Shown in pieces: positions 4,520 to 21,280 of a DNA stretch of 64,000 nucleotides. How positions within the stretch are numbered: position 1 is the stretch's first letter; each line of letters begins with the position of its first letter. The stretch is from Candidatus Omnitrophota bacterium (GTDB lineage Bacteria > Omnitrophota > Gorgyraeia > Duberdicusellales > 4484-171), in the NCBI GenBank assembly GCA_021735655.1, contig JAIPGM010000001.1:32001-96000 (forward strand), given 5' to 3'. Both the position numbers and the translations under genes were made by a program. Under the pieces are notes generated by a model. The model saw only the letters and a program-made list of their open reading frames with translations, searched no databases and was not told the origin of the DNA.

Positions 4520-4670
4520 ACGAAAAGGCAATCTTTTAGGCTATATAAGATTGCAAAGTCACGGGTCCTAGAGTCGTAATTAGCTTACGATTTAGTAGTT
4601 GATATTTAAGGATAGCCGGGCTGCCGAAAGTCTCTCTCCAGAGATTTGTGGTAGGTCGGTTTTGTTTTTT
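4520..4670 (+). promoter_or_regulatory. c-di-GMP-I (GEMM)-like riboswitch leader, copy 1, with terminator-type expression platform
   Basis: 'AAAGGCAAUCUU..hairpin..AAGAUUGCAAAGUCACGGGUCC' ... 'GGAUAGCCGGGCUGCCGAAAG'. These match the GEMM-I hallmarks GCAAAcc-P1-ACGCAAAGCC and uaGCcGGGuuaCCGA, compared from memory against the Vibrio Vc2 aptamer. A hairpin plus T-run follows at about 4615-4670, directly upstream of the RBS AAGGAG (4671-4676). Confidence 0.65.
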
Positions 4671-4682
4671 AAGGAGCAGTAA

Positions 4683-5303
4683 ATGTATAAAAAAAACAAA
4701 AAATTAACTAAAGCTCAAATCGCTTTGGAATATATAGCGGCTTGTCTTGTGTTTGCTGGAGTGGGGATTGCTTCTTTTTTTGCAATTAACCATGCGGCAG
4801 TTATGACAACTCGTGGCGGTGAAGGTAGCTTGTCTGACAACACTCTTTTGGGCAAGACCTTAAATGATGGGGTGCCAGACACTGCGCCTCCGGAAGATTG
4901 GTCACAGCCTCAAGAGGGTTTAGGTGGTGCACTTCCTGAAGATACAGCTGACCCGGAAGCAGTTACTGAAAATGAATGGGGATCTGGTAATGAAGGTGAT
5001 TTTTTAGGTGGAAGCAATGACCCACTTGTTTCTAATTTTGGTGAGGAAGGAGATAACCTATTGGCTGGATCCGGAGCCGGAGATCACTGGATTAATAACG
5101 AACCAGAAGATTTAGATTTACCGGACGCAGATGAAGTGAATACAGCCGAAGAGTTACAGGGAGGATTTAATTCTGCGACTGATCAATTTTTTAGTCAAAA
5201 TGAAGCTGGTTATACTGATGAGGGGATGGACCAAATTAATCAAAATCTTAATGATGATTGGTTTATGGGGTCGGTAGAGGAAACGCCAGGAGCAGAAGAA
5301 TAA
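4683..5303 (+). CDS. Flp-family pilin-like protein with long acidic C-terminal extension
   Basis: N-terminus 'KKLTKAQIALEYIAACLVFAGVGIASFFAI' has the Flp motif (x/xxxxEY followed by a hydrophobic helix). The remaining ~150 residues are Asp/Glu/Gly-rich and low-complexity. RBS AAGGAG, TAA stop. Confidence 0.7.
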   Translation: MYKKNKKLTKAQIALEYIAACLVFAGVGIASFFAINHAAVMTTRGGEGSLSDNTLLGKTLNDGVPDTAPPEDWSQPQEGLGGALPEDTADPEAVTENEWGSGNEGDFLGGSNDPLVSNFGEEGDNLLAGSGAGDHWINNEPEDLDLPDADEVNTAEELQGGFNSATDQFFSQNEAGYTDEGMDQINQNLNDDWFMGSVEETPGAEE

Positions 5304-5306
5304 ATT

Positions 5307-5414
5307 ATGATTATAAGATTTGTAAAATCTCAAAGTATTCTTGAATATGTGGCAATAGTTTTAGTGGTTGCTGCGGCAATGAGTGCAATGACTTTTTATC
5401 TCTCTCGGGCCTTG
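5307..5414 (+). CDS. very short Flp-like ORF (35 aa), possibly a frameshifted or decayed pilin paralog
   Basis: Translated by hand as MIIRFVKSQSILEYVAIVLVVAAAMSAMTFYPLGP*. The Flp-like 'KSQSILEY' plus hydrophobic helix is present. It is not in the ORF track because it is under 60 aa. The downstream sequence continues pilin-like in another frame. Confidence 0.3.
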
Positions 5415-5461
5415 AGAGTAAGAGATCGGCATTTGGCTCAAGAGATGAATGAGGCTAATCG

Positions 5462-5725
5462 GTGAGAATTATGAGTAAAATTAATAGAAAAAAGAATAAA
5501 ACTCAGAGTATTTTGGAGTACTTGGCGGTTTTAATTATGGTTGTCGGAGGCGGCACTGCAGCTACAATATTTTTTGGCAGCGGGGTTAGCTCTGGTCTTG
5601 GTCAAACTGAAAATCATATCCAAGAAGTTTTACCTCAAGCAGTTGATAATACTTATGAGGCTACAGTGGTTCCCCTTCCTGAGGTAGTTTATACCGGAGA
5701 ACCTGGCCCAGGAGGAACAGAATAA
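5462..5725 (+). CDS. Flp-family pilin-like protein (start GTG 5462 or ATG 5471)
   Basis: 'KNKTQSILEYLAVLIMVVGGGTAATIFFG': Flp-like motif plus a TM helix. TAA stop. Confidence 0.7.
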   Translation: MRIMSKINRKKNKTQSILEYLAVLIMVVGGGTAATIFFGSGVSSGLGQTENHIQEVLPQAVDNTYEATVVPLPEVVYTGEPGPGGTE

Positions 5726-5726
5726 T

Positions 5727-18825: not shown

Positions 18826-18944
18826 CAAATGAAAAGGTTCTCTGGTAAAACAAGAACAAAGCCACGGAGGAGTAGAAAGTTATGGCCGAGGCTTTAACAA
18901 TTTGGTAGTAGAATGGGAGGCGAGAATACGTCTCCGTTTTTTTT
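18826..18944 (+). promoter_or_regulatory. structured leader with a degenerate GEMM-like core and an intrinsic terminator/attenuator (18915..18944)
   Basis: 'GGUUCUCUGGUAAAACAAGAACAAAGCCACGGAGGAG' echoes the 'ACGCAAAGCCACGGGUCC' of the riboswitch copies. The hairpin GGAGGCG-agaaua-CGUCUCC is followed by nine U, directly upstream of RBS AAAGGAG and the ATG at 18974. Confidence 0.45.
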
Positions 18945-18973
18945 TGGCTGAGGTTGAGAGAAAGGAGTAAACC

Positions 18974-20800
18974 ATGAGACAGACAAAGACAAATTCAGAT
19001 GCTCGAAAAGTTAAAAAAACTATTGGTCTGTTTTTATGCTTCAGTTTGCTTTATTTTATTTTTCCGGTAAGCTCTCTGGCTCAGATTGGTGGAAGGGCCG
19101 GAAGTATGACTACGGCACCTATCATTAATAACGCAAAACCAAAACCTGCAGGAACTCTTTCTCCTGCTGCTGCAGCCGCCTTAGCGGATAAGCAAAAGAC
19201 GGCATCTGCAACAACACCTACACAAAAAGTTGCAACAATAAAAAAGCAACCAAAATTGCAAGTTAATAGTGGCCAGTTGCCTCCAACTAATCCTGCGGCT
19301 AAAGTTGCAACTGGGAAAGTTATACCTAAATTAATACCGCCCACCCCGAGTAAAACAGCAACAGCTGGTACTGGGGCAGGTACTTTAACTCCTGGCGTTA
19401 AGAAGGTCGGTGCTGCTGCTGCGTCTGCGCCAACCGGTGGAGACACTGGTGGTTTGTTAGCTTTAGTGGACAAGCCAGTAGCTGCTGGCGATAAACAAAA
19501 AGGGTTTGCTGATCCTACTAAAGTTACTAAGGGTTCTGAAGGGGCAGATTCGCCGGATTCAAAGTTGATTAAGGCTGCCGGAACTGATAAGTTCAAATCA
19601 GACGATGCAACGGTCGGAGCTGCTGACCCAAGCAGTACTCAGCGGCTTGCTGATGCAGCCAAGAGAACCGAACAGCAGTTAGATAAACAACGAGCTAAAC
19701 CTCAAGATCCGCTTACTGATACAACAAAAATTGAACAGGTTGCTAAACGAGCTGAGCGGTCTTTACCGGAATCAGCTGACCCGGCATTTAGGCGTATGGT
19801 TCAGCCGCCGACTAAATTTAGGCGTTTCGCTGATACCTCGAGGTTAACTCGTGAGATGAGCAAGCGGTTATCTGGTGAGATTAAGCCAACCTTTTCACGT
19901 TTGACCAATATTTCTGATGGAATGGTTAGGCTTTCACCAAAGTTAATTAATGCTGAATTAAGTCCAAAGTTAACTAAGTTAGCTACAGTTTCTAAAAATA
20001 TTGAGATTAGTTCTTTGGCTAACAAAATGCCCAATCAACTTAACAGTAAGTTTGAAAAGTTAGCCACAATATCACCGAATAAATTTAATTTTCAATCGCA
20101 GTTTAAAGGGGCAAAAATTGTTCCGCAACTAGCTAATTTAAGAGATGTATCTTTTCAAGTTTCTCCTTCAATTTCTGAGGTAAAGAGCTATCAGATTAGT
20201 TCGGCTCTAAAGGGGCTTAATCGTTTTTTACCTAAATCAGAGGTTAATTTTAGCTTACCTGACACCAATAGAATTGCTTTAACGGTAAAGTCGCCCTTGG
20301 CAAGTTTGTCTGATCTTTCACGGATAGCAGGATTAAAGTCTACCGGAAGTCAGGCTTTAAGTAAGGCAAAAGAGCTTAAGCGATCTTTTGCTAATCTAGC
20401 TTCGGTGTCTAAAAATAGCGATAAAATCCTACTTGAAGGACTAGCTCCAATGAAGGCTTCGAGCTTGCGAATTGTCAGCCAGCAGCAATCCCAGCATAAT
20501 CTTACGCAACTAAAGGTTCCTAAATTTGGTTTTATCCGATTATTGCATGGTGATAATGGTAGTAGGCTTCCGGCTATACAGGCGCTTGAGCTTTCCGGGA
20601 TTAATGTTCAGGATTTGATGATTGTTCAGGATCAGATAGAGCAAGACACATCATTACTGATAGCTGGAAATACGCAAATACTTAACTCTCCGACTTTAAG
20701 CATTCTTGATGCTGATGGCCAATTGGGGAATACATTCAATTCAATTTTACTTAGTAGTGATGTAATCACTCGACAATTGATTATCCGTAGCGTGCGATAA
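18974..20800 (+). CDS. secreted low-complexity (Ala/Thr/Pro/Lys-rich) protein with degenerate 'KPTFSRL'-type repeats
   Basis: Signal peptide 'IGLFLCFSLLYFIFPVSSLA'. The ~250-aa A/T/P/K/G-rich region contains 'IKPTFSRLTNISDGMVRLSPKLINAELSPKLTKLATVS', related to the 18-aa repeat family. Confidence 0.65.
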   Translation: MRQTKTNSDARKVKKTIGLFLCFSLLYFIFPVSSLAQIGGRAGSMTTAPIINNAKPKPAGTLSPAAAAALADKQKTASATTPTQKVATIKKQPKLQVNSGQLPPTNPAAKVATGKVIPKLIPPTPSKTATAGTGAGTLTPGVKKVGAAAASAPTGGDTGGLLALVDKPVAAGDKQKGFADPTKVTKGSEGADSPDSKLIKAAGTDKFKSDDATVGAADPSSTQRLADAAKRTEQQLDKQRAKPQDPLTDTTKIEQVAKRAERSLPESADPAFRRMVQPPTKFRRFADTSRLTREMSKRLSGEIKPTFSRLTNISDGMVRLSPKLINAELSPKLTKLATVSKNIEISSLANKMPNQLNSKFEKLATISPNKFNFQSQFKGAKIVPQLANLRDVSFQVSPSISEVKSYQISSALKGLNRFLPKSEVNFSLPDTNRIALTVKSPLASLSDLSRIAGLKSTGSQALSKAKELKRSFANLASVSKNSDKILLEGLAPMKASSLRIVSQQQSQHNLTQLKVPKFGFIRLLHGDNGSRLPAIQALELSGINVQDLMIVQDQIEQDTSLLIAGNTQILNSPTLSILDADGQLGNTFNSILLSSDVITRQLIIRSVR

Positions 20801-20989
20801 TGAGTTTTGTTCTATTATAATTTTCATAACAAGTTCTTTTTCAATGAGTTAACAATTTTATTGTCCAAAGATGGCTATCAATAATTTGAGCCCATCTTTA
20901 ATCAGCCTTGATAAAAATACGGGTTAAAACCGCCTTTATAGCTGCTTCTGAAAAACTTTTCAGAAAATAACTTTTTTTCTAGTATTTGC

Positions 20990-21019
20990 TTGACTTCTTT
21001 TAATATAATATGTTATATT
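20990..21019 (+). promoter_or_regulatory. sigma70-type promoter with extended -10 for the giant gene
   Basis: TTGACT at 20990-20995, an 18-nt spacer, then TGtTATATT at 21011-21019. Confidence 0.5.
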
Positions 21020-21064
21020 TATATGGAAGCTGAGAGATACATCTAAGATTAACAACAGGGAGCG

Positions 21065-21280
21065 ATAAAGGCAAACCTCGAGAGATCGAGGAAGCGCAAA
21101 GCCACGGGTCCTACGTTAGTTTATGCAGAAGTGTACGCAGTCAACAACGAGAGTTAGCTTCTAAAGAGAAAACAAGAAGAATTGAGTCAACACTGAGTTA
21201 GCCTTAATTTTGTCTGCGTAAGTCTTATTAAAAAGGATAGCCGGGCTACCGAATCCAAACGGTAACCCGGTTTTTTATTT
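21065..21280 (+). promoter_or_regulatory. c-di-GMP-I (GEMM)-like riboswitch leader, copy 4 (expanded P2), plus terminator
   Basis: 'AAAGGCAAACCUCGAGAGAUCGAGGAAGCGCAAAGCCACGGGUCC' has a P1 half nearly identical to copy 2. A ~120-nt insertion follows, then 'GGAUAGCCGGGCUACCGAAUCC'. The terminator is CCGGGCUACCG..CGGUAACCCGG plus six U at about 21241-21277. Confidence 0.7.

Follow-up and report, generated by a model that had tools for sequence, protein, structure and literature searches.

In Vc2 of Vibrio cholerae, the prototype of the GEMM-I class (Rfam family RF01051), one guanine of cyclic di-GMP (c-di-GMP) is read by G20 and the other is paired by C92, with A47 stacked between the two bases (PMC6140456; PMC5888326). 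An adenine at position 20 defines the GEMM-Ib subclass, which senses cyclic GMP-AMP (cGAMP), and Vc2 carrying the change G20A binds both messengers, c-di-GMP at 53 nM and cGAMP at 120 nM; some natural A20 RNAs, an example from Clostridium among them, are bispecific as well (PMC6140456). In Geobacter, GEMM-Ib RNAs serve as terminator ON switches for pili and surface proteins, arranged in tandem (PMC6456294), and the Geobacter A20 riboswitches select for cGAMP by 1200- to 1600-fold. For the Omnitrophota giant genes, West-Roberts et al. (2023) report links to c-di-GMP via PilZ and GGDEF proteins only and leave riboswitches unmentioned (10.1101/2023.11.21.568195). Here we describe four GEMM-I leaders within 64,000 nucleotides (nt) of a Candidatus Omnitrophota bacterium genome (assembly GCA_021735655.1, contig JAIPGM010000001.1, positions 32,001 to 96,000 of the forward strand; this whole stretch is the window), where they lie in the secretion-system locus described by West-Roberts et al. 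as conserved upstream of Omnitrophota giant genes, and we consider it probable that all four leaders are working cyclic-dinucleotide ON riboswitches of the GEMM-I fold. The Omnitrophota, ultra-small bacteria that have not been brought into culture, probably live as predators or depend on hosts, and few known genes match their giant genes in length.

When the whole window was scanned with cmscan and Rfam 15 at gathering thresholds, exactly four matches were obtained, all on the plus strand and all to RF01051 (c-di-GMP-I; gathering score 35). We refer to the copies as c1 (4517), c2 (13196), c3 (14689) and c4 (21060). The highest scores were those of c2 (13196-13283; 58.0 bits, E = 9.8e-9) and c4 (21060-21253; 50.5 bits), followed by c1 (4517-4628; 38.7 bits) and c3 (14782-14870; 38.2 bits), the c3 match covering only the 3' two-thirds of the aptamer. 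An initial annotation of this DNA, made by a model from the letters alone, had placed four leaders of the GEMM-I class here, and its proposal is borne out both by these scores and by the covariation described below. The three strings that it gave as common to the leaders are likewise present: GCAAAC followed by a hairpin, (A/G)CGCAAA(G/A)CCACGGGUCC, and GGAUAGCCGGG(C/U)U(G/A)CCG. A permissive scan of the 64 kb (E<=5) returned no additional GEMM copy, and there was no match in the window to c-di-GMP-II (RF01786) even at that threshold. The related family RF03167 (c-di-GMP-I-GGC) gave the best E-values in the permissive scan, yet its scores of 34.6-55.2 bits lie below its gathering score of 59, and it was also ruled out by its defining base, a G at the position of A47, which is missing as all copies read CGCAAAG.

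Syntenic loci from about eight other genomes were reached via homologues (41-64% identical) of two proteins of the locus, the 499-residue protein encoded behind c3 (K9L86_00235) and a 479-residue protein encoded upstream of c1 (K9L86_00140). In these loci, Rfam scans together with a clade covariance model, R1, which was built from c2 and c4 sequences only and without c1 or c3, located aptamers at the same four positions as in the window. At the first position, c1 is present in the window and in loci L013, L014, L016 and L017, degenerate in L015, and cleanly deleted with its promoter kept in L011 and L012; R1 recovers c1 at 41.8 bits. At the second, c2 is present in the window, L002, L005 and L008/L013 and deleted in L009/L014. 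At the third, c3 is present in the window, L002, L005 and L008 and absent from L009. At the fourth, c4 is present in the window, L002, L005 and L009, and no absence was observed among the loci reached through the 499- and 479-residue proteins, from which all c4 orthologues were drawn. Judged from these comparisons, the local surface or adhesion regulon put forward in the initial annotation is conserved, with single switches that are dispensable.

To describe the fold, 15 leaders from the window and the syntenic loci were aligned with the variable P3 tips and an insertion in c3 spliced out. In this alignment of 15 aptamers, 96.5% of the cells are paired in the GEMM-I fold and seven pairs have changed on both sides, a result matched by none of 500 shuffles of these related sequences; when the 3' partners were slid out of register, only 19-45% of cells were paired. 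The core of P1 (CG/CG) is invariant across the 15 sequences and hence uninformative for covariation, and it is through the compensatory changes elsewhere that the three-helix fold is supported. In the window, the folded aptamers extend over 4512-4628 in c1, 13196-13283 in c2 and 21060-21253 in c4, all on the plus strand; c3, which is split, is described separately below.

Downstream of each copy come a GC-rich stem and then a U run, and the 5' arm of the stem, GCCGGG(C/U)U(G/A)CC, is found at 4615-4625, 13270-13280, 14857-14867 and 21240-21250. The intrinsic terminators, again on the plus strand, lie at 4616-4670 for c1 (stem 4616-4659, U run 4660-4670; hairpin of -23.4 kcal/mol), 13271-13307 for c2 (stem 13271-13300, U run 13301-13307; -13.4 kcal/mol), 14858-14904 for c3 (stem 14858-14898, U run 14899-14904; -24.5 kcal/mol) and 21241-21276 for c4 (stem 21241-21270, U run 21271-21276; -15.9 kcal/mol). 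Throughout the 15 leaders, the 5' arm of the terminator is built from the aptamer itself: it takes in the P3 3' strand, C92 and the 3' strand of P1, and alignment columns 66-75, which it occupies, run from the P3 3' strand over C92 to the first base of P1. The terminator helix is paired in 92.7% of the cells of the 15 leaders, compared with 12-51% in slid controls, and compensatory changes (C-G/U-A and G-C/A-U) occur at two positions, some of them among same-position orthologues; the c3 orthologues, for example, show a G-C to A-U compensatory change. In c1 and c3, the distal P1 3' strand is drawn into the terminator hairpin too (GGGAGGC/GUCUCUC in c1, AGAG/CUCU in c3).

Folding of the full leaders placed the terminator in the minimum-free-energy (MFE) structure of 15 of the 15, and forcing the basal P3 helix instead costs 3.7-15.8 kcal/mol, a price that the binding of a ligand with picomolar-to-nanomolar affinity could pay (affinities from PMC6140456). 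Because of the shared strand, aptamer and terminator are mutually exclusive, and a ligand-stabilised aptamer should therefore block termination, making each leader an ON switch. In the absence of ligand, the strand CCGGG(C/U)U(G/A)CC(G) would pair with the downstream GG(C/U)A..CCGG to form the intrinsic terminator, and the transcript would stop before the gene; with ligand bound in the three-helix junction, the same strand would be kept in P3 and P1, no terminator would form, and RNA polymerase would read through. The initial annotation had predicted both a terminator built on the aptamer 3' strand, which is seen in all four copies, and a ligand-ON antitermination logic, which is the best reading of these structures and from which we infer the direction of the switch.

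Position 20 was placed via the Rfam consensus, where it is the base directly 5' of GC in GCAAAC, together with the variant position of RF03167 and the published numbering (PMC6140456). A47 and C92 are present in all four copies, and G20 only in c1 (base 4527) and c4 (base 21070); c2 (base 13206) and c3 (base 14700) carry A20. The same division holds in the related loci. Counting the window and its orthologues, position 20 is a G in 5/5 c1 and 4/4 c4 sequences (9/9) and an A in 4/4 c2 and 4/4 c3 sequences (8/8), and although the cores of c2 and c4 are 80-90% identical, they always differ at this base. The idea that c-di-GMP directly drives all four copies, as had been proposed at first, is therefore not upheld for c2 and c3, which carry the signature of GEMM-Ib and cGAMP. 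We infer the ligands of all copies from their pocket bases: c1 and c4, with G20/A47/C92, are most likely c-di-GMP sensors, and c2 and c3, with A20/A47/C92, most likely respond to 3',3'-cGAMP, to both ligands, or to c-di-GMP at a higher threshold than c1 and c4. Under this assignment, c1 would gate a pilin/Tad-like operon and c4 the giant gene, probably through c-di-GMP, and c2 would gate a protein with 18-residue repeats and c3 then the 499- and 698-residue proteins.

An alternative in which all four are equivalent c-di-GMP ON switches, A20 being neutral or tuning affinity so that more c-di-GMP is needed, no cGAMP being made, and the genes being induced in a graded order by the c-di-GMP level, seems to us somewhat improbable. 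It fits the membership of all four copies in RF01051, the 53 nM affinity that Vc2 G20A retains for c-di-GMP via a protonated adenine, the bispecific binding of some A20 RNAs (PMC6140456), and the description of PilZ and GGDEF links to c-di-GMP near Omnitrophota giant genes with cGAMP unmentioned (10.1101/2023.11.21.568195). It is hard to reconcile, however, with position 20 being A in 8/8 and G in 9/9 sequences despite flanking proteins that are just 41-64% identical, and a split that is fixed across such diverged genomes therefore points to selection for two distinct pockets. Moreover, the same single change parts cGAMP-selective from c-di-GMP riboswitches in Geobacter.

This Geobacter precedent, with its 1200- to 1600-fold selectivity, its pili and surface genes and its terminator ON switches, often in tandem, is also what favours the proposal that c2 and c3 belong to GEMM-Ib proper and select for 3',3'-cGAMP, as does the conservation by position of the A20/A47/C92 pocket. 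In that case, the locus would integrate two second messengers: the pilus and giant protein would answer to c-di-GMP, and the secreted proteins, repeat and basic alike, to cGAMP. We nevertheless regard such a partition of the messengers as doubtful and true cGAMP selectivity of c2 and c3 as unlikely. We know of no cGAMP synthase in Omnitrophota, and in both Vc2 G20A and the Clostridium example, A20 alone goes with bispecific binding (PMC6140456). Among the recognisable domains of the 64-kb window, which is part of the genome only, there is no cyclase.

We thus prefer to see all four leaders as cyclic-dinucleotide ON riboswitches, with c-di-GMP the most likely ligand of c1 and c4 and a broader set of candidates for c2 and c3. 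Several points weigh against this. Relatedness among the aligned sequences inflates the significance given by the shuffle controls, and thermodynamic folding leaves out co-transcriptional kinetics. Copies c1 and c3 lie only 3-4 bits over the Rfam threshold, and c1 is without a GNRA tetraloop. Since c1, c2 and c3 have been lost in some related genomes, no one of these three switches can be indispensable. Finally, with regard to the ligand, A20 is needed but insufficient for cGAMP selectivity.

The architecture of c3 is unusual. It has no promoter of its own, and there is no terminator after the c2-controlled gene other than that of c3 itself, and one transcript should therefore carry c2 and c3 in series. 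The aptamer itself is split: CGAUAAGAGCAAACC and a hairpin with a GUAA loop form a canonical 5' half (14689-14722), comprising the P1 5' strand, A20 and the P2 hairpin, which is followed on the 3' side of P2 by an inserted domain of 87 nt (14723-14809; 65-79 nt in the orthologues), and only then by ACGCAAAACC and the 3' part (14810-14870), which holds J2/3 with A47, P3, C92 and the P1 3' strand and scores 38.2 bits with RF01051 and 29.3 bits with R1. In four orthologous leaders, this 5' half shows no change, the invariant string being GGCGAUAAGAGCAAACC. In L002 and L005, R1 reports c3 as single 44-bit matches spanning the 5' half, the insertion and the 3' part, and in the window and L008 as two half-matches obtained with filters off, the 5' half-match in the window covering 14688-14757. 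The cmscan alignment of c3 had instead taken a nearby GGCAGA for the 5' half, and it was rejected as this string is not conserved in L008. We prefer the upstream 5' half because of its invariance in the four orthologues and because R1 joins it to the remainder in L002 and L005. The broad span originally assigned to this leader (14695-14910) was in this sense the better one, the cmscan alignment being too short at its 5' side.

The inserted domain of c3 is predicted to fold autonomously, with its ends paired and a conserved UUCCGUGG displayed in a loop. Within this loop, CCGUGG (14776-14781) is complementary to the P3 5' strand CCACGG (14819-14824), a pairing that was found by both RNAalifold and single-sequence MFE folding and next to which one flanking pair covaries; the duplex is worth about -15.6 kcal/mol in all four genomes. 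In ligand-free c3, the inserted loop would pair with the P3 5' strand, so that both halves of P3 would be sequestered, and according to these models the loop may act as a second lock favouring the OFF state.

The other copies differ from one another mainly in P2 and P3. GNRA loops close P2 in c2 (GAGA), c3 (GUAA) and c4 (GAGA), and there is none in c1. A GNRA tetraloop on P2 that docks into P3 is said to characterise type 1 in a type-1/type-2 distinction reportedly drawn by Sudarsan and colleagues in 2008. Copy c1 also has a P1 that is long and bipartite (GGGAGGC..CG). In the window, L013 and L014, its P2 runs through as one unbroken helix, and in L016 and L017 it contains the usual 3x3 internal loop; this helix shows compensatory changes over five lineages, and compensatory changes are found in the P3 of c1 too. 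In c4, about 120 nt are added in the distal part of P3 (51-123 nt among the c4 sequences), and this extension is partly conserved between the window and L009.

That some copies, mainly c1 and c3, are decayed and non-binding relics, constitutive attenuators, or sites for proteins or small RNAs is very unlikely, for although c1 and c3 exceed the threshold of 35 only slightly, at 38-39 bits, c1 is without a GNRA loop and the P2 of c3 is interrupted, neighbouring lineages have deleted c1, c2 or c3 or, in L015, carry a degenerate c1 (19 bits), and a fifth leader retains just a P3-like hairpin and a terminator, c1 and c3 both retain the pocket bases 20, 47 and 92 and every junction string, the P2 of c1 has undergone compensatory changes in five lineages, the 5' half of c3 is invariant and its insertion is a closed autonomous domain with which the junction geometry is still possible, and R1, built without c1 or c3, recovers both.

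With all four leaders taken as riboswitches, we turn to their promoters. A consensus scan of the plus strand identified promoter-like sites of the form TTGAnn, 18-nt spacer, TGnTATATT upstream of three copies, at 4471-4500 for c1 (TTGAAA, 18 nt, TG-TATATT), 13124-13153 for c2 (TTGACT, 18 nt, TG-TATATT) and 20990-21019 for c4. Promoters of the c1 type recur upstream of the c1 orthologues, and that of c4 is kept upstream of the giant gene of L009. The initial annotation had called the three near-identical; this is so for c2 and c4, with 26/30 bases identical, whereas the likeness of c1 to them is confined to the hexamers, the spacing and the TG. A loosely conserved CG(C/T)TTT(C/A)A box was also seen 25-40 nt upstream of the -35 element in most promoters of the locus and its orthologues (4430-4470, 13080-13123 and 18760-18795 in the window, and at the orthologous promoters). 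As the pattern occurs twice in the window against an expectation of six, which is under chance, we make no claim for the box and record it as an impression.

The controlled genes are those named in the initial annotation, namely the head of a pilin array, a secreted protein with 18-residue repeats, a basic protein and the giant gene. Upstream of c1 on the plus strand lie a T2SSE ATPase fragment and then three unannotated genes (Pfam, translations). The genes behind c1 (4683-12895, plus strand), identified from Pfam hits and translations and sharing their order with L011-L016, begin with that for a 206-residue acidic protein with a pilin-like N-terminus and continue with about 11 small pilin-like proteins with class-III-signal/Flp-like N-termini (KAQSxxEY), a TadE/G-like protein of 500 residues and two T2SSF (TadB/C-like) proteins. 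Within this operon, 10938-11164 is a 228-nt spacer that is rich in hairpins and contains no transposase gene; in three of the related loci, a Y1 transposase gene of the IS200/IS605 type lies between the pilin array and the T2SSF genes (L012 18843-19481, L014 18606-19250, L015 18427-18804). An internal promoter or terminator near 11000-11160 is possible.

Copy c2 controls a gene at 13339-14652 (plus strand) for a secreted basic protein of 437 residues (isoelectric point 10.0) that consists of about ten repeats with a period of 18 residues (LKPSFsKLxxLSPxxxGx). The genes controlled by c3 (14959-18569, plus strand) encode basic secreted proteins of 499 and 698 residues, in neither of which a Pfam domain was found and whose homologues were found solely in related Omnitrophota loci; for the 499-residue product, the AlphaFold2 model had a mean predicted local distance difference test score of 47.4, too poor for a fold search. 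Between these genes and c4 lies a gene for a 608-residue repeat protein (18974-20800, plus strand). The giant gene behind c4 starts at 21375 on the plus strand, and its open reading frame is still open at the end of the window (64000), giving more than 14,208 codons. The only recognisable domains of its product are a thioredoxin domain (around residues 7580-7690) and a segment resembling zinc metalloproteases of the Peptidase_M54/reprolysin-like kind (around residues 10950-11050); Pfam recognised nothing in the first 4000 residues, and a homologue search with the first 500 gave no matches.

A fifth leader (18796-18950) precedes the 608-residue repeat-protein gene and has a promoter of the same type (18796-18825). 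It contains a hairpin at about 18859-18898 (AAAGCCACGG...CCGnGGCUUU), the 5' strand of which is identical to the GEMM P3 5' strand, followed by AACAAUUUGG and a GGGAGGCG..GUCUCC/U9 terminator (18914-18935, U run to 18945), and it is conserved in L002, L005, L008 and L009. We rejected it as a fifth GEMM riboswitch as neither Rfam nor R1 recognises the leader; it may be a paralogue that has decayed or a regulatory RNA of a separate kind. The initial annotation had picked up neither this leader nor the c3 insertion, the atypical P2 of c1 or the A/G split at position 20.

At several positions in the related loci, the riboswitch has been excised with the promoter and ribosome-binding site kept (L011 11435-11578, L012 11441-11584, and L009 6519-6610, which corresponds to L014 21232-21320). 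The remnant of c1 excision is GGAUAGCU..UUUUUU, and that of c2 excision, CAAAGCCACGGGAG, now stands directly before the start codon. In L015, a more distant relative, the leader at the c1 position (11520-11715) has kept P3, the shared strand and the terminator and differs in its 5' half (GGCAGCAAGGUCAGCCUUGAGACUGC); R1 gave this leader just 19 bits and Rfam no match, and it is possible that it represents a variant with an altered pocket. One further locus, L010/L013 (GCA_964519975.1, CAZFML010000004.1), comes from a metagenome-assembled genome named 'uncultured Planctomycetia bacterium' and is of the Omnitrophota type, with identical gene order, three of the riboswitches, and proteins 43-58% identical; the Planctomycetia label may be wrong.

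The presence of riboswitches before the giant gene, the pilus operon and the secreted-protein operons leads to the hypothesis that a second messenger licenses the whole attachment apparatus, and this can be tested in vitro, as the aptamers can be made and probed without culturing the organism. The split of A20 and G20 by position could reflect an order in which the parts are expressed, set by two signals or by one signal at two thresholds. A more speculative extension, to which we give rather low credence, is a switchboard for two messengers, in which the G20 aptamers would license the pilus and the giant gene through c-di-GMP and the A20 aptamers, of cGAMP type, would license the secreted repeat proteins, with c3 as a new architectural variant whose inserted P2 domain would serve as a built-in anti-aptamer lock. 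If true, a cGAMP-riboswitch regulon would for the first time be found outside the established GEMM-Ib lineages, and the timing with which Omnitrophota express their giant 'predation' proteins would gain its first cis-regulatory handle. The insertion in c3 would in addition be a natural case of an extra competitor element within a GEMM-I aptamer.

How, then, does this locus relate to the systems described before? The RNA class, the ON-switch design and the link to pili and adhesins are established biology, and no new mechanism is involved. Our literature search found no paper linking Omnitrophota with a riboswitch at these genes, and within the literature searched, three features are new: the Omnitrophota as host phylum together with a giant gene as target, G20 and A20 aptamers interleaved in one locus in a fixed arrangement, and the insertion in c3. 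The leaders resemble GEMM-I as represented by RF01051 and Vc2 in their three-helix fold, their junction strings, A47 and C92, in G20 in c1 and c4, in the GNRA loops on P2 in c2-c4, and in their association with genes for pili and surface proteins. They differ from it in A20 in c2 and c3, in the fully paired P2 of c1 without a GNRA loop, in the 65-87-nt P2 insertion of c3, and in the 51-123-nt P3 extension of c4. RF03167 is placed in one clan with RF01051, and their consensus sequences are similar.

The likeness to Geobacter GEMM-Ib (Gs1761, Gm0970) includes the equivalent of A20 (A14 of Gs1761), the fold, the use of terminators in ON switches, the control of genes for pili and extracellular proteins, and the occurrence of several copies per regulon, some of them in series. 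In contrast, A20 and G20 copies are here interleaved in a single 17-kb locus. With the locus of West-Roberts et al., the present one shares Rotamase_2, RcpC, a secretin, two T2SSE ATPases, small genes with class-III signal peptides, T2SSF and the giant gene; relative to that description, the RNA switches are an added regulatory layer.

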